The notes: a model not told the origin generated them from the letters alone. Shown: positions 14,914 through 51,751, numbered from the stretch's first letter. The stretch is DNA of 64,000 bases from Candidatus Saccharimonadota bacterium (GCA_017519305.1 JAFWSN010000001.1:120296-184295), one strand, 5' to 3'. Numbers and translations are program-made.

Positions 14914-15031
14914 GTTGCTCCTTATTTCATTAACGGAAGGTTACATCGACCTTCTCCTAAAGATAATTCTAATGATTATTTTGAATTTTTCAAGACTCGC
15001 TTTTGTCTCCTATCGGTGATATAATATGTCT

Positions 15032-15988
15032 ATGCAAGAACTCGAGAAATTAAAATCTGATTTAAAAGCTTTAAATGCGGAATATGCCAAGATCAAAGAT
15101 ATCCCAGCCGAGAAACGTGCTGAATTTGGTCGTGAGATGAACGCCAAGAAAAATGCGCTTCTTGAAGCTATCGCTAAGGCTGAGGAGGCTGCGCTCGAAT
15201 CTGAGATTGAGCCACTCGATATTACCGCTCCTACCGCCCCAAACCAACCTATCCCAGAGTTCCTCTCAGCCGAAGGTGGTTCAAAACACCCACTTATGAC
15301 TGAACTTGATCGTGTAATTGAAATCTACCAAATGATGGGTTTCGACGTCGTCGAGCCACGTCAGCTTGATGATGAATATCACATGTTTGATAGCCTAAAC
15401 TTCCCAAAGGGTCATCCGGCGCGCGACGGCTACGATACGTTCCGCACCGAAGAGGGATATATTCCGCCAGCTCACACCTCAACTATGCAAAATCGTGTTC
15501 TTAAAGCCTGCAAAAAGAATCTTGATGAAGGCAAGAATATTGCCGTCGTAGTTCCTGGCCGCGTCTTCCGTAATGAGGACGTCGACACTACTCACGAGCA
15601 CACATTCTACCAGTGCGAAGGTGTTTACGTCTCGAAAGATTGTACTCTCGGCAACATGCTTGGCATTTTGCGTGAATTTTTCGAAAAATATTACGAGCAA
15701 AAACTCGACATTTCTACTCAGCCAGGTTACTTTCCATTTACTGAGCCGTCACTCGAATTCAAGATCGAAAAGCCAAAGGCCCTAGGTGGCAAAAAAGGCG
15801 AGTTTATCGAAATGCTCGGCTGCGGCATGATTCATCCAAACGTTCTTAAAATGGCTGGCATTGACCCAACTATTTACCACGGCTTCGCGTGGGGTGGCGG
15901 CATCGACCGTCTGGTAATGTTGCGCTACGGACTTAAAGATGTGCGTTATTTCGAATCCGGCAAACTTAATTTCTTGAAGGAGTTTTAA
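15032..15988 (+). CDS. pheS: Phenylalanyl-tRNA synthetase alpha subunit
   Basis: HPARD, HTS, GRVFRNE, YFPFTEPS, GFAWGGGIDR. Start moved to 15032 (6 nt after TATAAT). Confidence 0.97.
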   Translation: MQELEKLKSDLKALNAEYAKIKDIPAEKRAEFGREMNAKKNALLEAIAKAEEAALESEIEPLDITAPTAPNQPIPEFLSAEGGSKHPLMTELDRVIEIYQMMGFDVVEPRQLDDEYHMFDSLNFPKGHPARDGYDTFRTEEGYIPPAHTSTMQNRVLKACKKNLDEGKNIAVVVPGRVFRNEDVDTTHEHTFYQCEGVYVSKDCTLGNMLGILREFFEKYYEQKLDISTQPGYFPFTEPSLEFKIEKPKALGGKKGEFIEMLGCGMIHPNVLKMAGIDPTIYHGFAWGGGIDRLVMLRYGLKDVRYFESGKLNFLKEF

Positions 15989-24498: not shown

Positions 24499-26883
24499 AT
24501 GGAAAGATATGACCCAATCAAAATCGAAGAAAAATGGCAAAAGCGTTGGGAGGAAGAAAAACCTTACACCGCAGTAGAAAAAGAGAACGTTCCAAAGATG
24601 TACCTGGCGGAAATGTTCCCGTACCCATCGGGAGCTGGCCTCCACGTTGGTCACGTGCGAAACTTTACGATTGTTGATGTCCTATCTCGTTTCTATGCGC
24701 AGCAAAAAGTTAATGTAATGCGCCCATTTGGTTATGATACCTTTGGTTTACCAGCCGAGAACTACGCCATTAAAACCGGCACGGCCCCACAGGAAATCAC
24801 CAAAATCAATATTGATAACTTCCGCAAGCAAGCTAAGCGCCTCGGTTTCGCTATTGATTGGGATCGCGAAATCAATACTTCGGATCCAGAATATTACAAA
24901 TGGACCCAGTGGTGTTTCTTGCAGCTATTCAAGAAAGGCCTCGCCTACCAAAAAGAGTCATATCAATGGTGGTGCCCAGTTGATCAAACCGTGCTGGCAA
25001 ACGAGCAGGTAGAGAACGGCTGCTGCTGGCGCTGTGGTCACGAAGTTGAAAAACGCAAAATGAAACAATGGTTCTTCAAGATTACTGCCTATGCCGATGA
25101 ACTCTTGGATGAAATTGACGCCCTTGATTGGCCAGAAAAAATCAAGACCATGCAAAAGAACTGGATTGGCCGTTCCGAAGGCGCTCTTGTCGATTTTGCC
25201 GTTGAAGATTCTGACGAAAAAATCAAAGTCTTTACTACTCGCGTTGACACTATCTTTGGTGTTAGCTTCCTTGCGCTCGCTCCAGAACATCCACTAGTTT
25301 CAAAACTCGTCGGCGAAAAGACAAAAGAAGAAGTTGAAAATTACTGCAAGAACGCAATTAAAAAATCCGAAATCGAACGCCAAGAAAACAAAGAAAAGAC
25401 CGGTGTTTTTACTGGCTCTTATGCAATTAACCCACTGAATGGCGAAAAGGTGCCAATCTGGGTTGCTGACTATGTTTTGTCTGGCTATGGCGAAGGCGCC
25501 GTGATGGGTGTGCCGGCTCACGATGAACGCGACTTTGAGTTTGCCGAAAAATTCGATTTACCAATTAGAAAAGTCATCGAAAAACCAGAAAACTCTACCG
25601 ACGACGACAAATGCTACCATGGCGAAGGCGTCTTGGTAAATTCCGGCCAATTTAACGATACAAGAAGCGAAGATGCTCGCGAACAAATCGCCGCTTGGCT
25701 CGAAGAGCGCGGCATCGGCAAACCACAAGTTACCTACAAGATGCGTGACTGGTTGATCTCGCGCCAACGCTATTGGGGCTGTCCAATTCCTATCGCCTAC
25801 GATAAGGACGGTAATCCACATGCTATTCCAGAAGATCAACTTCCAGTCGTTATTCCAGAAGTCGAAGACTACAAACCAGATAATTCTGGTCGCTCTGCTC
25901 TCGCCAAATGTAAAGACTGGCTCAAAGTCACGATTGATGGGGAAGAGATGACCCGTGAAACCGATACGCTCGACGGCTATGCTTGTTCTAGCTGGTATCT
26001 TTGGCGCTATGTCTCTACACATGATGATAAGCATGCTTGGAATCCAGAAGCTATTAAATACTGGGCTCCAACCGATGTCTATGTTGGCGCAGACCACGCC
26101 GTGGCACACCTCCTTTATGTGCGTTTCTGGTGCAAATTCTTTGCCGATGAAGGTTACTTGCCGTTCCGCGAACCAATCAAAAAATTGATTTATCACGGCT
26201 ACATCAACGCGCCGGATGGCAAGAAAATGTCCAAGAGTAAGGGCAACGTGATTGATCCGCTCGACGTGATTAATGATGGCTACGGCGCCGACACACTCCG
26301 TACTTACGAAATGTTTATTGGTCCAGTCGAGCTTGATGCTGCCTGGGACCCACGCTCGGTAGGCGGCGTTTATCGCTTCCTCGGTCGTTCCTGGAGCCTC
26401 GCCTTTGGCGAACCGGCAAAAGCCGAGAAAGATGCTAACATTGTACTCCGCAACAAAACCATCAAGCGTGTCACCGACGACATTCATCGTTGTAGCTTCA
26501 ACACTGCCGTCGCTGCCTTAATGGAATACGTGAACGAGCTTTATAAAGTTGGTGTTGAGCCGGCCGATGTCGAAACTTTGGCTAAGTTACTCAAACCATT
26601 TGCTCCACATCTCGCCTGCGAGATTTTGGAAAAGATCGGTGCAAACGATGATGAGTGGCCAGTTTGGGATAATAATTATCTTGTCGAAGACACCGTTGAG
26701 ATAGTTGTCCAAGTTAACGGCAAGCTTCGTGCTAAACTTTCTGTCGCTCTTGAAGATTTGGAAGACGAAGAAAAAATTAAATCCCTTGCTCTTGCTGACG
26801 AAAAAGTTAAGAAATTTGTCAGTGATGAGCCAAAGAAAGTTATCTTTGTTAAACAAGCTAAACTCGTTAACGTTGTCGCATAA
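24499..26883 (+). CDS. leuS: Leucyl-tRNA synthetase
   Basis: MFPYPSGAGLHVGH, editing domain with GVPAHDERD, WLISRQRYWG, KMSKS. Confidence 0.98.
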   Translation: MERYDPIKIEEKWQKRWEEEKPYTAVEKENVPKMYLAEMFPYPSGAGLHVGHVRNFTIVDVLSRFYAQQKVNVMRPFGYDTFGLPAENYAIKTGTAPQEITKINIDNFRKQAKRLGFAIDWDREINTSDPEYYKWTQWCFLQLFKKGLAYQKESYQWWCPVDQTVLANEQVENGCCWRCGHEVEKRKMKQWFFKITAYADELLDEIDALDWPEKIKTMQKNWIGRSEGALVDFAVEDSDEKIKVFTTRVDTIFGVSFLALAPEHPLVSKLVGEKTKEEVENYCKNAIKKSEIERQENKEKTGVFTGSYAINPLNGEKVPIWVADYVLSGYGEGAVMGVPAHDERDFEFAEKFDLPIRKVIEKPENSTDDDKCYHGEGVLVNSGQFNDTRSEDAREQIAAWLEERGIGKPQVTYKMRDWLISRQRYWGCPIPIAYDKDGNPHAIPEDQLPVVIPEVEDYKPDNSGRSALAKCKDWLKVTIDGEEMTRETDTLDGYACSSWYLWRYVSTHDDKHAWNPEAIKYWAPTDVYVGADHAVAHLLYVRFWCKFFADEGYLPFREPIKKLIYHGYINAPDGKKMSKSKGNVIDPLDVINDGYGADTLRTYEMFIGPVELDAAWDPRSVGGVYRFLGRSWSLAFGEPAKAEKDANIVLRNKTIKRVTDDIHRCSFNTAVAALMEYVNELYKVGVEPADVETLAKLLKPFAPHLACEILEKIGANDDEWPVWDNNYLVEDTVEIVVQVNGKLRAKLSVALEDLEDEEKIKSLALADEKVKKFVSDEPKKVIFVKQAKLVNVVA

Positions 26884-39973: not shown

Positions 39974-42900
39974 GTGAGTACTAAACCGAAAAACGGTGAA
40001 CGTATGTTTTTCACCGAAGGTGACCAAGCACTCCCAATTCCTGATTTGATTGCACATCAAAAGGACTCTTGGGAAGACTTTGTCAAAAACGGACTCCGCG
40101 AGATTTTTACCGAGCTTAATCCAATCGACGATTACACCGGTCAAAAACTCTCTCTCCGTTTTAAAGATTATTATTTTAAAGAGCCGAAGCAAACCGAACG
40201 TGACGCCAAATACAACCTCGCAACCTACGAGGCTCCGCTTCATGTCTTGGTTGAGCTAGAAAACAAGGTAACCGGCACCAAAAAAGAGCAAGACATCTAC
40301 TTTGGTGACTATCCTTGGATGACCGATCGTGCTACCTTCATTATTAACGGTACCGAACGTGTTATCGTTTCTCAGTTGATTCGTTCAGCTGGTGTTTTCT
40401 TTACTGCTGACCACATTGGTCTTCGCAATTACTACGGTGCTAAGGTGATTCCTGGCCGTGGTGCTTGGCTCGAGTTTGAGACCGCTGCAAACGGTTCAAT
40501 CAACGTCAAGATTGACCGCCGCCGCAAGGTGCCAGTCACAACCTTCATGCGCGCTCTTGGTATGACTAAATCCGAAATCAAGAGCAAATTCGAACAGGTC
40601 GATACTGGCGAAATCAATTACATTGATTCGACTTTCGAAAAAGACACCACCTCTACTCAAGGTGAGGCCTTGCTCGAGGTTTACCGCCGTCTTCGCCCAG
40701 GTGATCTCGCCACAGTCGAAAACGCTAAATCAATGATTGAGCGCACTTTCTTCGATCCAAAACGCTATGATTATTCAAACGTTGGTCGTTTCAAGATTAA
40801 CAGCCGCCTTGGCTTTGATACGCCAAACGAACCAAAATTCCGTACTTTGCAGATGGAAGACCTCATTGCTATCGTAGCTGAGATTATCCGTCTCAATAAT
40901 ACGCAAGAACCAGCCGACGATATCGACTCCTTGGCTAACCGCCGCGTCAAACTCGTTGGCGAGTTGGTCCAACGCCAATTCCGTCTTGGTATGCTCCGCT
41001 TGCAGCGCAACATCCTCGACCGTATGTCGATGGCTAACCCAGAAGAAGTTACTCCATCCCAACTCCTTAACTCTCGCCCAGTCGTGGCCGCTGTTAAAGA
41101 GTTCTTCGCTAGCTCACAGCTCAGCCAGTTGATGGATGAAACCAACCCATTCTCTGAACTTGCACACAAACGTCGTCTAAGTTCGATGGGTCCTGGTGGT
41201 TTGACTCGTGAACGTGCCGGCTTCGATGTCCGTGACGCCCACCCAACCCACTACGGCCGCATCTGTACCGTTGAAACCCCAGAAGGTGGTAACGTCGGTC
41301 TCGTGCTTAACCTTGCAACTTATGCTCGCATTAACGAATATGGCTTCATCGAAGCGCCATACCGCGTCGTTAAAAACGGCAAAGTTACTGATGAAGTAGT
41401 CTACGTTGATGCTGCTGCTGAAAACGATATGATTATCGCTGACGCATCTGTTAAATTGAATAAAGATGGTAAATTCGTTGAGGAATGGGTCTCTGCTCGT
41501 GTCCACGGCGCGCCAGCCCAGGTCGAGTCAAAGAACGTTACTCATATCGATGCTGCCCACAAGGAAATTCTTGGTGTATCAGCCAGCTTGATTCCATTCG
41601 TTGAGAAAAACCGTGTTGACCGCTCTCTCATGGCCTGCGCCATGCAGAAACAGGCAGTCCCACTACTCAAGACCGATAACCCAATCGTTGGTACTGGTAT
41701 TGAGCGTGAAGTCGCTAAGAACACTTCACAGGTCGTCTTTGCCGAAGGCGCCGGTGTCGTGAAGAAAGCCGACGGCGAATCTGTTATTGTTGCTTACGAT
41801 AAAGGTGGTGACAAAGAATACAAACTCGTTCACTTCGAAAAGACCAATGATGACCGCTGTTACAACCAACACTGCCGCGTAGCTCGTGGTCAAAAGGTCA
41901 AAAAAGGCGACGTCATCATCGAGGGTGCATCTATCAATGATAATGAACTCGCTCTTGGCCGCGACCTTCTCGTTGCCTTCATGCCATGGCGTGGTTACAA
42001 CATGGATGATGCTATCGTCATTTCTAACCGCCTAGTCGAAGATGATACTTTGACTTCTATCAACATCAAAGACTTCGACGTCGAAGTCCGCGAAACCAAA
42101 CTTGGTCCAGAACAAGTTACTCGTGATATTCCAAACGTTTCTGAACACTCTCTCCGCCACCTTGGCGAAGACGGTATCGTTACAGTTGGTTCCGAAGTTG
42201 CTCCTGGTGATATCCTCGTTGGTAAAATTACGCCAAAGGGTGAACAGGAACTTAGCTCAGAGGAGCGCCTCCTCCGTGCTATCTTCGGTGAAAAAGCCAA
42301 AGACGTCCGCGATACTTCAGTTCGTATGAACGGTTCATCTACTGGTAAAGTTGTCGACGTCCGCGTTTACACTCGTGAACAAGGCCACGAACTCAAAGCC
42401 GGTGTCCTCATGCAAATCAAGATCTTCGTCGCTGAAATGCGCAAAATCGGCGTCGGTGATAAGCTTGCAGGTCGCCACGGTAACAAAGGTGTGGTCTCCC
42501 GCGTTCTCCCAGTAGAAGATATGCCATTCATGGCTGATGGTACTCCAATCGATGTAGTGCTTTCACCAATGGGTGTGCCTTCCCGTATGAACCTCGGTCA
42601 GCTCTTTGAAACTCACCTTGGTATGGCTGCTCGCGCTCTTGGTTACAAGGTCGCAACCCCATCCTTTAACGGTGTCCCAGATGAAAAAATCAGCGATGAG
42701 CTCGAAAAAGCTGGATTTGATCGTGATGGTCGCGTCCAACTCTTCGACGGTCTCACCGGTGAACCATTCGAAGAACGCACCTCAGTCGGTGTGATGCACA
42801 TGCTCAAACTTCACCACATGGTCGAAGACAAGATCCACGCTCGTTCAACCGGTCCTTACACCATGGTTACCCAACAGCCACTCGGTGGTAAAGCCCAGAA

Positions 42901-43348
42901 CGGTGGTCAGCGCTTCGGTGAAATGGAGGTGTGGGCTCTTGAGGCTTATGGTGCTGCTACCACGCTTCAGGAAATGCTCACCATCAAATCTGATGATGTT
43001 TACGGCCGCGCTAAAGCATACGAATCAATCATCAAACGTGAACCAATCGAAGGTCCAAAGCTTCCAGAAGGTTTCAACGTCTTGGTTAAGGAACTTCAAG
43101 GTCTTGGCCTTAAGGTTGACCTCCTCGATCACGGCGAAGCCGCTGATGCTGGCGACGTAATTGAAAAGACCTCACGCGAGATTGAGCGTACCAAAGATGA
43201 TCAATCGATTTACGATCAACACAAGAAGGATGCCGAACCAGAAATCGTCGACCTCGATGCCGAGGAAGAGGCTGCTCTGGAAGATGAAGGCATGGAAATA
43301 ATAGAAGAAGAGGACGATGGTACAGTCGACCTCGGAGAGGAGTTCTAA
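39974..43348 (+). CDS. rpoB: RNA polymerase beta subunit
   Basis: SQLSQLMDETNP, ETPEG, GDKLAGRHGNKG, GGQRFGEMEVWALEAYGA. Confidence 0.99.
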   Translation: MSTKPKNGERMFFTEGDQALPIPDLIAHQKDSWEDFVKNGLREIFTELNPIDDYTGQKLSLRFKDYYFKEPKQTERDAKYNLATYEAPLHVLVELENKVTGTKKEQDIYFGDYPWMTDRATFIINGTERVIVSQLIRSAGVFFTADHIGLRNYYGAKVIPGRGAWLEFETAANGSINVKIDRRRKVPVTTFMRALGMTKSEIKSKFEQVDTGEINYIDSTFEKDTTSTQGEALLEVYRRLRPGDLATVENAKSMIERTFFDPKRYDYSNVGRFKINSRLGFDTPNEPKFRTLQMEDLIAIVAEIIRLNNTQEPADDIDSLANRRVKLVGELVQRQFRLGMLRLQRNILDRMSMANPEEVTPSQLLNSRPVVAAVKEFFASSQLSQLMDETNPFSELAHKRRLSSMGPGGLTRERAGFDVRDAHPTHYGRICTVETPEGGNVGLVLNLATYARINEYGFIEAPYRVVKNGKVTDEVVYVDAAAENDMIIADASVKLNKDGKFVEEWVSARVHGAPAQVESKNVTHIDAAHKEILGVSASLIPFVEKNRVDRSLMACAMQKQAVPLLKTDNPIVGTGIEREVAKNTSQVVFAEGAGVVKKADGESVIVAYDKGGDKEYKLVHFEKTNDDRCYNQHCRVARGQKVKKGDVIIEGASINDNELALGRDLLVAFMPWRGYNMDDAIVISNRLVEDDTLTSINIKDFDVEVRETKLGPEQVTRDIPNVSEHSLRHLGEDGIVTVGSEVAPGDILVGKITPKGEQELSSEERLLRAIFGEKAKDVRDTSVRMNGSSTGKVVDVRVYTREQGHELKAGVLMQIKIFVAEMRKIGVGDKLAGRHGNKGVVSRVLPVEDMPFMADGTPIDVVLSPMGVPSRMNLGQLFETHLGMAARALGYKVATPSFNGVPDEKISDELEKAGFDRDGRVQLFDGLTGEPFEERTSVGVMHMLKLHHMVEDKIHARSTGPYTMVTQQPLGGKAQNGGQRFGEMEVWALEAYGAATTLQEMLTIKSDDVYGRAKAYESIIKREPIEGPKLPEGFNVLVKELQGLGLKVDLLDHGEAADAGDVIEKTSREIERTKDDQSIYDQHKKDAEPEIVDLDAEEEAALEDEGMEIIEEEDDGTVDLGEEF

Positions 43349-43349
43349 T

Positions 43350-46300
43350 ATGGCTTGGATGGATAATTTTATCAGTGCCTCTGACTTTGATTCAATCCGT
43401 CTAACAGTGGCCAATGCGGACGACATCTTAAACTGGAGCTATGGCGAAGTTACAAAGCCAGAAACCATTAACTACCGTACCCAAAAACCGGAACGTGATG
43501 GTCTCTTCTGCGAACGTATCTTCGGTCCAACCAAAGATATCAATCCACATGATTCAAAACTAAAAGGTGTGCGCTCTCGTGAAGCTGCCGTCGATAAGGA
43601 AGGTAACCTCGTTACTAAATCTATCGCCCGCCGCGAACGCATGGGTCACATCTCCCTCGCTGCACCAGTTGCTCACATCTGGTTCATGCGTGGTACCCCA
43701 TCAGCGATTAGTCTTTTGCTCGATATCACTGTTAAAAACATTGAGAAAGTTGTCTACTTTGCAACTTACCTCATCACCGAAGCAAAAGATGAAGAAATTG
43801 CTAAAACTCTCGAATCACTCGAGAACCAAACCATCGCCGCTCGTGAGGCTATCCGCCTTCGCTACGAGAAGGAATCTAAAGATGGTGATGTAAAAGCTCT
43901 TGCTGAAGCTCAGACTAAAGAATTGGCTGAACTCGAGAGTGATTACCAAGCTAAAAAATCGATGCTCGAATCCTTCAAGAAAGGCGGCACGATTACTGAA
44001 GTTGAATATCGTAATCTTCCAGAAGAATACGAAGATTTGATTACTGTCGAGATGGGCGCAACCGCCATCAAGAAAATGCTCGACGAAATCGATCTCGACC
44101 AACTTATCGAAAAACTTCACGCTGAAGCTAAAGAAGCTAAAGGCCAAAAAGAGAAAAAGATTCAAAAACGTCTTAAAACTCTCGAAGGCATGCAGGCTGC
44201 TGGTATCAAGCCAACTGATCTTGTCTTGACTGTTATCCCAGTCATCCCACCAGATCTACGTCCAATGATCGCACTTCCTGGTGGTCGCTTCGCAACCTCA
44301 GATCTTAACGATCTTTATCGCCGCGTGATCAACCGTAACAACCGTTTGCGCAAACTTCTCGACCTTAACGCTCCAGAAGTTATCTGCCGCAACGAGATGC
44401 GCATGCTCCAAGAGGCTGTAGATGCTCTTATTGACAACTCTGCTTCTCATGCTGCCAGCTCTAGCAACGGTCGTCGCAAACTTAAATCACTTTCCGACCT
44501 CCTCAAAGGTAAACAGGGTCGCTTCCGCCAGAACCTTCTTGGTAAACGCGTCGACTACTCTGGTCGTTCAGTGATTGTCGTTGGTCCGGAACTTCGTCTT
44601 AACGAATGTGGTTTGCCAAAACAAATGGCACTTGAGCTCTTTAAGCCATTCGTCATTTCTTGGCTCATTGCTAACGAACACGCCAACAATATCCGCTCAG
44701 CTTCTCGCTTGATCGAAGCTAAAGAAACCGTCGTTTGGGATGCTTTGGACGAGGTAATTAAGGGTAAATATGTGCTCTTAAACCGTGCACCATCCCTTCA
44801 CCGTTTGTCCGTTCAGGCCTTCCAACCACGCCTTATCGATGGTAAAGCTATCAAACTTCATCCACTCGTAGCATCTGGTTTCAACGCCGACTACGATGGT
44901 GACCAGATGGCTGTTCACCTACCACTCTCTGACGCTGCTCAGGCTGAGGCTCGTGAACTCATGGCTGCTGATAAGAACCTTTTGAAACCTGCTGATGGCG
45001 CGCCAGTGCTCGCTATTTATCAGGACGTCGTGCTCGGTGCTTACTACCTTACTTACGACAAGCCAGGTACTGACCAAGGCGATCCAAAAGCCTTCTCATC
45101 AGTCTACGAAGCTGAACTCGCTTACGACCAGGGAATCATCCACTTGCAAACCCCAATTCGCGTGTTTGCGAAGCGCGAGATTCGCGATACTACTCTTGGC
45201 CGTGTTATCTTCAACGAAATCTTGCCAAAAGATTATCCATACGATAACTCAGTCCAGACCAAGAAACACCTTTCTAAGGTCATGGCCGACATCTTTGATA
45301 TGTACGGTGCTGAAGTAACGGTTAAAACCGCTGACGCCCTCAAGGATCTCGCCTTCGAATATGAGACTATCGCTTCAATCTCTACCGCTAAGGATGATTA
45401 TCCAACCTACGACGAAATTGATGACTTCCTCGCTGAAGGTGACGCCAAAACCGCCCTCATTCAGGAACAATTCAACGAAGGTCTTGTTACCGAAGAAGAA
45501 CGTTACAAACTCACTATCGCCAACTGGCGTGATATCGATAAGAAGATTTCTGACTTCCTTCAGAGCAAACTTGCCGAGATGGATACCGATATCGCTGTGA
45601 TGGTTAACTCCGGTGCTCGTGGTAACATTTCTAACATTAAGCTTGCTTCCGCCGAGATTGGTATCATGGTGGATATTAACAACAACGAAATTGAGCTTCC
45701 AGTTAAATCAAGCTACAAGAAAGGTCTTAACACCCTCGAATCCTTCATCGCCACTCGTGGTGCACGTCAAGGTCAGGTGTCTACCGCTCTTCGTACCGCT
45801 GACTCTGGTTACCTCACCCGTCGTCTCGTTGACGTCTCCCAAGATGTCTTTACTACCGACGAAGAAGCTGAAGACCCAGGTTACACTGTTAACCGTGAAG
45901 ATTCTGAACAATCTGGCGTGCCATTCAAGGCATGGATCTCCGGTCGCTATGCCGCCGAAGCTGTTCCAGGCTATGTCGAAGCTGACGAATTGATCACCCC
46001 TGATCTTGCTGCTCAAATCGACGCCGATGATAACGTCAAATCAGTCAAGATTCAATCTGTACTTTCAACCACTGCTGTTAACGGCATCCCACGCAAAGCT
46101 TACGGCGTTGATATGTCTACCCGTGAACTCGTGGCCGCCAACCAACCAGTCGGTGTGATTGCCGCTCAATCCCTTGGTGAACCAGGTACCCAGCTTACCC
46201 TCGATACCAAACACGGTTCTGGTGTGGCAGGTTCTGGTGCTATCGCCCGTGGTCTTCCTCGTGTTGAAGAGCTTCTCGAAGCCCGCAGCCCGAAAGGTCA

Positions 46301-47171
46301 AGCTTACATCTCTACCATCGATGGTACGGTTGAAGCTTGGGAAGATGGTAACCACTATGTGGTTCAAATCACCCCACAATCTGGCGATATTGAACGTTAT
46401 GAACTTAATGGTCGCAAGGCCGAAGTCAAGGATGGTCAATCAGTTAAAGCTGGTGCTACCTTGGTCAAGAAGGCTGGCAAAGATGCTGCTATCAAGGCTA
46501 AATTCGACGGTATCGTTGAACTAGTCAAAGATGGTATTGTGCTCGTTGCTGCTGCTACTGCTCCAGTTCGCGTTGAAATCCCTGGCGATGCTGAACTTCT
46601 CGTCAAGAATGGCGACGTCGTCGCTGCTGGTGATCGTCTCACCACCGGTTCTTTGAACCTCCAAGACCTCATGAAGTACAAAGGTATCGAAGCTGCTGAA
46701 CGCTACATCATGAACGATGTTCTTAACGTTTACGCCGCTCAGGGCCACGAAATCTCACCGAAACACCTTGAGATTCTCGTTCGCCAAATGTTCTCTCGTG
46801 TACAGATCAACGAACCTGGTGACTCTAGCTTCGTTTCAGGCGATATCGTCTCGAAAGCTGCTGCTGTTACCGAGAACCAGAGACTCGAAGCCGCCGGCAA
46901 GGCTCCAGCTACCTGGACCAACTTGCTCCTTGGTATCACCAAAGTCTCTATCTTCTCCGATTCGTTCTTGTCTGCTGCATCCTTCCAGGATACGACTCGC
47001 GTTCTTATTAATGCCGCTATCAACGGTCGCGTCGACCACTTGAACGGCCTCAAAGAGAACGTCATCATCGGTCGCAAGATTCCTGTAGGTACTGGCGTCA
47101 AGCCAATCGAAACCGAAGAGGAATTAATTTCCGAAGGTGAACCAACCGAAGAGGAAATCGCTGAACTCTAA
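43350..47171 (+). CDS. rpoC: RNA polymerase beta' subunit
   Basis: KPETINYRT, GRFRQNLLGKRVDYSGR, NRAPSLHR, NADYDGD, ASFQDT. Start at ATG 43350 after GAGGAG. Confidence 0.99.
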   Translation: MAWMDNFISASDFDSIRLTVANADDILNWSYGEVTKPETINYRTQKPERDGLFCERIFGPTKDINPHDSKLKGVRSREAAVDKEGNLVTKSIARRERMGHISLAAPVAHIWFMRGTPSAISLLLDITVKNIEKVVYFATYLITEAKDEEIAKTLESLENQTIAAREAIRLRYEKESKDGDVKALAEAQTKELAELESDYQAKKSMLESFKKGGTITEVEYRNLPEEYEDLITVEMGATAIKKMLDEIDLDQLIEKLHAEAKEAKGQKEKKIQKRLKTLEGMQAAGIKPTDLVLTVIPVIPPDLRPMIALPGGRFATSDLNDLYRRVINRNNRLRKLLDLNAPEVICRNEMRMLQEAVDALIDNSASHAASSSNGRRKLKSLSDLLKGKQGRFRQNLLGKRVDYSGRSVIVVGPELRLNECGLPKQMALELFKPFVISWLIANEHANNIRSASRLIEAKETVVWDALDEVIKGKYVLLNRAPSLHRLSVQAFQPRLIDGKAIKLHPLVASGFNADYDGDQMAVHLPLSDAAQAEARELMAADKNLLKPADGAPVLAIYQDVVLGAYYLTYDKPGTDQGDPKAFSSVYEAELAYDQGIIHLQTPIRVFAKREIRDTTLGRVIFNEILPKDYPYDNSVQTKKHLSKVMADIFDMYGAEVTVKTADALKDLAFEYETIASISTAKDDYPTYDEIDDFLAEGDAKTALIQEQFNEGLVTEEERYKLTIANWRDIDKKISDFLQSKLAEMDTDIAVMVNSGARGNISNIKLASAEIGIMVDINNNEIELPVKSSYKKGLNTLESFIATRGARQGQVSTALRTADSGYLTRRLVDVSQDVFTTDEEAEDPGYTVNREDSEQSGVPFKAWISGRYAAEAVPGYVEADELITPDLAAQIDADDNVKSVKIQSVLSTTAVNGIPRKAYGVDMSTRELVAANQPVGVIAAQSLGEPGTQLTLDTKHGSGVAGSGAIARGLPRVEELLEARSPKGQAYISTIDGTVEAWEDGNHYVVQITPQSGDIERYELNGRKAEVKDGQSVKAGATLVKKAGKDAAIKAKFDGIVELVKDGIVLVAAATAPVRVEIPGDAELLVKNGDVVAAGDRLTTGSLNLQDLMKYKGIEAAERYIMNDVLNVYAAQGHEISPKHLEILVRQMFSRVQINEPGDSSFVSGDIVSKAAAVTENQRLEAAGKAPATWTNLLLGITKVSIFSDSFLSAASFQDTTRVLINAAINGRVDHLNGLKENVIIGRKIPVGTGVKPIETEEELISEGEPTEEEIAEL

Positions 47172-51634: not shown

Positions 51635-51751
51635 ATGAAAGTACGTGCTAGTGTTAAAAAAATCTCCCCTGATGACATCATTGTCCGCCGCAAAGGTGTA
51701 CTTCGTGTTATCAACAAGAAAAAACCTAAAAATAAGCAAAGGCAGGGTTAA
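51635..51751 (+). CDS. rpmJ: 50S ribosomal protein L36 (Cys-free form)
   Basis: Translated by hand as [38 protein letters not shown]; absent from the ORF track. Confidence 0.95.

Follow-up and report, generated by a model that had tools for sequence, protein, structure and literature searches.

Replacement of the zinc-ligand cysteines in the RNA polymerase beta' subunit of a Saccharimonadota bacterium and its order

Can a bacterial RNA polymerase do without the zinc of its beta' subunit? Both beta' zinc sites are regarded as fixed, near-universal features of the bacterial enzyme, and laboratory mutants of the zinc-site cysteines of Escherichia coli beta' are defective. Second-site mutants in E. 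coli reportedly fail to assemble (work ascribed to Markov and colleagues in 1999), and mutants of the N-terminal zinc-binding domain (ZBD) are said to alter termination and antitermination (ascribed to King and colleagues in 2004). The question is raised by the rpoC gene in a 64,000-nucleotide stretch of a Candidatus Saccharimonadota bacterium genome (GCA_017519305.1, JAFWSN010000001.1:120296-184295; hereafter the window, with positions counted from its first letter). The gene (43350..47171, plus strand), identified from its translation, Pfam matches, genome match, database clusters and cysteine count, encodes an RNA polymerase beta' subunit (RpoC) of 1273 amino acids. The protein has three cysteines in total (residues 54, 346 and 420), none of them at a ligand position. 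Our preferred explanation, to which we assign a probability of roughly 0.75, is that this rpoC is functional, that both beta' Zn(Cys)4 sites were replaced once in the ancestor of the Saccharimonas/Nanosynbacter order, and that the ZBD was kept as a metal-free module.

The cysteine-free counterpart of the ZBD comprises residues 58-98 (43521..43643, plus strand; FGPTKDINPHDSKLKGVRSREAAVDKEGNLVTKSIARRERM), as defined by gapless alignment to solved beta' chains and by conservation over 84 loci of the order. HMMER aligned RpoC residues 10-148 without gaps to the solved beta' chains of Mycobacterium smegmatis and Streptomyces, and a 31-position aligned block in the ZBD includes the stretch from gptkd to gnlvt. 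Positions 43539-43604 encode I64-G85 of this domain (INPHDSKLKGVRSREAAVDKEG). The segment from FGPxKD to RRERMGH has the canonical position and length, with 30 residues and no gaps relative to E. coli, M. smegmatis and the sister orders. The E. coli ligands C70, C72, C85 and C88 correspond to P66 (codon 43545-47), D68 (43551-53), V81 (43590-92) and E84 (43599-601). The alignment places P66-H67-D68 (43545..43553, plus strand) at the first knuckle, C70-x-C72 in E. coli numbering, and V81-D82-K83-E84 (43590..43601, plus strand) at the second, C85-x-K87-C88, with K83 as the counterpart of K87. A sequence-only reading of this stretch had proposed that all four ZBD cysteines were replaced by P, D, V and E, and both the gapless HMMER alignment and the 84 cysteine-free loci of the order bear it out.

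The loss extends beyond that reading, which had named neither the second beta' zinc site nor the wider losses of cysteine-zinc sites described below. In the second site, the E. coli ligands C814, C888, C895 and C898 are replaced by A840, T907, P914 and A917. A840 (45867..45869, plus strand) adjoins a one-residue deletion, and T907, P914 and A917 fall within 46068..46100 (plus strand); these positions were assigned by alignment with 20 sister-order proteins, E. coli beta' and the solved Staphylococcus aureus and cyanobacterial beta' chains. When this RpoC and 12 full-length members of the order were aligned with the 20 sister-order proteins and E. coli beta', a relic C888 was found in 3 of the 13 order members, and C814, C895 and C898 in none. 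This pattern is consistent with a single ancestral loss of the second site, after which the last ligand decayed, as far as the alignment indicates. Compared with the canonical beta' of E. coli, the gene, the position and length of the ZBD segment, its flanks (FGP..KD and RRERMGH) and five of six basic residues are shared, whereas all eight ligand cysteines are replaced. The cysteine loss in RpoC is real, robust and larger than had been stated. The protein is a variant form of an enzyme already known and does not define a new type of system.

How widely is the loss shared? A cysteine-free ZBD was found at all 84 sampled loci of the order, which represent at least 22 families, and in all database records labelled Saccharimonas, Nanosynbacter or Saccharimonadales. 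The four ZBD cysteines are kept in named records from several other "Saccharibacteria," other Patescibacteria, Chloroflexota and Firmicutes, and all eight beta' cysteines are kept in each of 20 genomes that belong to the same class but to other orders. In a maximum-likelihood tree of full-length RpoC, calculated with the zinc-site columns removed, the cysteine-free proteins form one clade (Shimodaira-Hasegawa-like approximate likelihood ratio test, SH-aLRT, 100) that needs a single change, and the sister group of this clade consists of families f23, f24 and f28. Mapping the loss across Patescibacteria, a check that the sequence-only reading had suggested, confined it to one order. Specifically, we scored 400 Patescibacteria genomes, about 370 of them outside the order, against a canonical ZBD query. 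Low scores were confined to the order, the 14 lowest-scoring outsiders have four cysteines, and no further loss was counted among the roughly 370 other Patescibacteria. Likewise, no loss was found in 150 genomes of the class Bacilli, Mycoplasma-like members included, where the 25 lowest scorers all have four cysteines, some with altered spacing. The loss is order-wide and monophyletic. Separately, a truncated rpoC at the end of contig C9 in G443, from another Patescibacteria family, reads GGKYK..IISEKCG; single-base substitutions apparently turned C72 into G and C85 into S, and the second site is intact. For these reasons we did not count it as an independent loss; it may reflect either an error at the assembly end or a loss that is partial and independent.

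The peptide that replaced the canonical ribbon is itself conserved. The 84 loci comprise 76 distinct DNA sequences and 41 distinct peptides, and 14 of the 30 core positions are invariant among the 41 peptides (K62, D63, I64, D68, K70, G73, R75, R77, E78, A80, D82, G85, V88 and T89). At the former ligand positions, P66 occurs in 39 peptides, D68 in all 41 and V81 in 36 (V or I in 40), and position 84 is N in 27, E in 8 and K in 6. Of their neighbors, D82 is present in all 41, K83 in 40 and H67 in 36, with N or Y in the other five. Synonymous codon differences outnumber nonsynonymous ones by 4.2:1 in the ZBD counterpart, and the replacement peptide is under strong purifying selection. Gly73 and Gly85 are conserved, as they are in canonical ribbons. 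In E. coli, lysines and arginines of the ZBD touch spacer DNA and nascent RNA. Five of the six basic ribbon residues are kept here (E. coli K74, K76, K79, R81 and K87 as K70, K72, R75, R77 and K83), and the sole basic contact residue lost is the counterpart of E. coli R77, which is G73. K74 and K87 of E. coli beta' contact promoter DNA (bioRxiv 10.1101/2020.01.02.893370). We built two AlphaFold2 models, one of residues 1-250 with 19 cysteine-free sequences and one of residues 8-422 with 31 sequences. Both draw a hairpin at AAV/DKEGN/LVT with low confidence, the predicted local distance difference test score (pLDDT) being ~50-62 at the ZBD in each.

Is RpoC alone in having lost such sites? We compared the proteome of this genome (G000) with that of the complete genome of the nearest sister clade (G031) over 307 reciprocal best pairs, and spot-checked the timing of losses in five more genomes of the order and five more sister genomes. 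Paired cysteine knuckles were present only in the sister in 12 pairs, only here in 4, and in both in 10. Relative to G031, knuckles were lost from RpoC (two sites), NrdR, two PilB/GspE ATPase paralogues, AlaRS, IleRS, GatB, LeuRS (one site), PheS, ribosomal proteins S14, L36 and L31, the DnaG zinc ribbon and the C-terminal tail of SecA, and the whole cysteine-rich domain of DnaJ is deleted. Among the spot-checked genomes, L36, L31, S14 and DnaG are cysteine-free throughout the order. The L36 gene (rpmJ; 51635..51751, plus strand; located by tblastn) encodes a zinc-independent form in which the ligands C, C, C and H have become S, D, N and N; L36 is cysteine-free in five further genomes of the order and has three cysteines and the histidine in all six sister genomes. 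In DnaG, the zinc ribbon CPFH...HCFGCG has become SPF...WHDFSSGKGG across the order (here on contig C2, 69648-71291, outside the window). We also noted that one sister-order family, f25 (G033), has a cysteine-free WHDFSS primase and a cysteine-free (C-) S14, yet an RpoC with eight cysteines; its primase and S14 could reflect convergence or gene transfer.

Other losses are narrower. The NrdR zinc ribbon was lost only in family f1, and DnaJ lacks its cysteine-rich domain only in this genus, with eight cysteines kept in five other genomes of the order, one of them from the same family (dnaJ and nrdR lie at 181828-182733 and 49885-50340 of contig C2, outside the window). Because some losses are order-wide, one is restricted to a family (NrdR) and another to a genus (DnaJ), the process appears to be stepwise and ongoing. 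It also seems to be aimed at zinc sites and not at cysteine generally. Cysteine makes up 0.94% of residues here and 0.58% in G031, despite fewer Cys4 zinc sites here, which rules out general cysteine depletion or avoidance. A complete purge of Cys4 sites was also rejected, as 17 proteins of this genome still have at least two CxxC motifs, including Fpg, GlyRS, ComM and proteins of the size of UvrA, LigA and RadA, the last three assigned by size only. All of these keep their knuckles, as do the prepilin peptidase, a protein resembling ComF and a recombinase. MurT keeps its own cysteine pair, unmatched in the sister comparison.

How could the domain hold together without its ligands? We infer a metal-free ribbon in which two turns replace the knuckles. 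The ZBD was retained at its exact length by selection rather than deleted; it would be a metal-free module that still forms a two-knuckle ribbon. An Asn-Pro-His-Asp turn may stiffen the first knuckle, the second may consist of a D-K-(N/E)-G tight beta-turn, and Pro66 and Val81 could occupy the space left by the metal. In that case the core enzyme would be free of structural zinc, and the RNA polymerase probably works without it. The change may be part of a continuing, stepwise trimming of cysteine-zinc sites from housekeeping proteins (the ribosome, RNA polymerase, primase, aminoacyl-tRNA synthetases and SecA, and later NrdR and DnaJ), which would lower the zinc demand of the cell.

There is next to no chance that the cysteine-free gene is an assembly or sequencing artefact, a pseudogene or a decaying second copy of rpoC. 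We found no evidence in favor of this. The 1273-residue frame is intact, Rpb1 domains 1-5 are all matched in order and at full length (PF04997, PF00623, PF04983, PF05000 and PF04998; Pfam E-values 7e-73 to 7e-5), and the catalytic NADFDGD-type aspartate triad is present as NADYDGD (NADYDGDQMAVH). The gene is single copy, with one match in a genome of 786 kb in 11 contigs that is 97% complete. Moreover, independent assemblies supply 76 distinct DNA sequences with the same cysteine-free state, which is also seen in 120 database protein clusters, the latter being near-identical members of the same genus only. More serious, though still very unlikely, is that the domain binds Zn, or Mg, Mn or Fe, via a new set of oxygen and nitrogen ligands such as D68, D82, H67 and E/N84. 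The invariance of D68 and D82 and the presence of H67 in 36 of 41 peptides, all adjoining former ligand positions, speak for such a site. However, five peptides have N or Y in place of H67, and N, E and K all occur at position 84; because both residues vary, a replacement His/Glu site is unlikely. Pro and Val, which now stand at two of the four former ligand positions, are unable to coordinate metal, the two carboxylates of D68 and D82 are too few for a tight structural site, and the second site (A/T/P/A, or Ser) offers no candidate ligands. Of the two options in the sequence-only reading, the zinc-free fold thus fits the evidence, and the alternative ligand set of H, D or E is disfavored. We consider it improbable, if less so than a new metal site, that the former ribbon has lost its fold and is now a basic, flexible loop, or that it has taken on a changed role as a surface for new interactions, for instance because partners such as Rho are absent. 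Consistent with this, AlphaFold confidence is low for residues 58-98 in both models, and none of the 24 genomes sampled from the class (this one and 23 relatives) has Rho, one known partner of the ZBD. The sister orders also lack Rho, yet keep all four cysteines, so the loss of Rho does not explain the change and was ruled out as its cause. The exact length, the 14 invariant positions and Gly73 and Gly85 as in canonical ribbons also argue against a loop, as does the same hairpin predicted in both models, and a low pLDDT is expected for a lone beta' fragment modeled with 19-31 sequences.

The driver of the change is a separate matter. The same zinc-free fold could have arisen through protection against thiol oxidation or a neutral ratchet in a small population, not through zinc economy, and we regard this as possible but doubtful. 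The losses were stepwise over a long time, as a ratchet predicts, and zinc importer content is the same in the order and its sisters. None of the 24 genomes sampled from the class has a ZnuA-type zinc binding protein, and the ZIP transporter, absent here, is patchy in both groups. Because importer content is alike, it lends no independent support to zinc scarcity as the driver. On the other side, the higher total cysteine here argues against general thiol avoidance, and the lost sites concentrate in presumably abundant proteins (ribosome, RNA polymerase, synthetases and SecA), whereas rarer repair proteins keep theirs. We read this as zinc sparing weighted to abundant proteins; the pattern fits a saving scaled to presumed abundance. 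In addition, the three ribosomal proteins concerned (L31, L36 and S14) are the ones swapped for zinc-independent forms under zinc starvation in other bacteria (PMC5912738 and PMC13343924). Several observations weigh against our preferred explanation of a metal-free module within a zinc-sparing trend. With a pLDDT of only ~50-62 at the domain, that it is folded and free of zinc is what we infer from sequence. The invariant D68 and D82 could in principle bind metal, and the order and its sisters cannot be told apart by their zinc transporters. Zinc-dependent proteins remain (the RseP HExxH motif, the Fpg finger and likely UvrA and LigA), so the cell still needs zinc. Finally, the proteome comparison covers one sister genome and 10 spot-checked genomes.

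Are there precedents for a metal-free ribbon of this kind? The lid of adenylate kinase holds a Cys4-Zn site in many Gram-positive bacteria and a hydrogen-bond network of His, Ser, Asp and Thr in E. coli. There, as would be the case in the ZBD, a zinc knuckle is replaced by polar and hydrophobic residues and the fold of the small domain is kept. The lid belongs to a different protein and has solved structures on both sides, whereas the cysteine-free ZBD is known from sequence alone. The ZBDs of Mycoplasma-like Bacilli, whose small genomes we read with TGA as Trp, resemble the present case in belonging to a fast-evolving lineage with reduced genomes and in being strongly remodeled (48-56% identity to the canonical query). 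They differ in having an insertion and new spacing (CPICG...C-x5-C; CxxC...Cx5C) with all four cysteines kept. That even these remodeled domains keep four underlines how rarely all the cysteines are lost.

The zinc-independent C- forms of L31, L36, S14 and other ribosomal proteins are alike in that a Cys4 ribbon is swapped for a cysteine-free version that takes over its function. In this genome L36, L31 and S14 are themselves C- forms, and the sister orders carry the cysteine forms. Similarly, RpoC here is a ligand-replaced orthologue of a Cys4 protein whose close relatives keep the cysteine form. In well-studied bacteria, the C- ribosomal forms are extra paralogues induced by zinc starvation (PMC5912738, PMC13343924 and PMC7363858). 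In contrast, the cysteine-free rpoC is the sole copy, with no cysteine-containing paralogue in the genome, it is presumably constitutive, and its product is RNA polymerase.

Full-text literature searches returned no published description, from Saccharibacteria or any other group, of a cysteine-free beta' subunit or a zinc-free RNA polymerase. A recent paper (PMC11112998) gives RNA polymerase as one illustration of why no known organism lives without zinc. We lean slightly towards the broader view that Saccharimonadales run transcription, priming and translation on machines without structural zinc, namely an RNA polymerase lacking it at both beta' sites, a primase without its zinc ribbon and a ribosome with C- L31, L36 and S14. 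If true, this would be the first case in nature of a cellular, multisubunit RNA polymerase that lacks zinc, and it would weaken the textbook argument for zinc essentiality that rests on RNA polymerase. The later losses in this lineage, first in NrdR and then in DnaJ, would document a zinc-sparing programme still in progress. The succession of losses provides a time-line, with RNA polymerase, primase and ribosome first, NrdR next and DnaJ last. The order serves as a natural experiment on whether zinc in beta' matters for folding, assembly or nucleic acid contact, and the cysteine-free ZBD as a template for a metal-free ribbon. As cultivated members exist (human oral epibionts such as Nanosynbacter), the loss can be tested as an instance of a minimal epibiont lowering its metal needs.

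Two of the synthetase genes noted above lie in the window. In leuS (24499..26883, plus strand), one of the two cysteine-knuckle pairs of the sister orders is replaced (Y-DKDGN / TID--GEE), and pheS (15026..15988, plus strand) is without the Cys4 insertion present in the sister-order orthologue. Named relatives place the organism in Candidatus Saccharibacteria (TM7); the closest, with 94% identity, is a metagenome-assembled genome from goat ileum. Immediately 5' of rpoC is rpoB, encoding the beta subunit (39974..43348, plus strand). The rpoB stop and the rpoC start are separated by one base (TAA-T-ATG, 43346-43352), an rpoB-rpoC operon context. An alternative in-frame ATG at 43317 would give a longer open reading frame overlapping rpoB; it is probably unused, because the RpoC proteins in the database are 1273 amino acids long.
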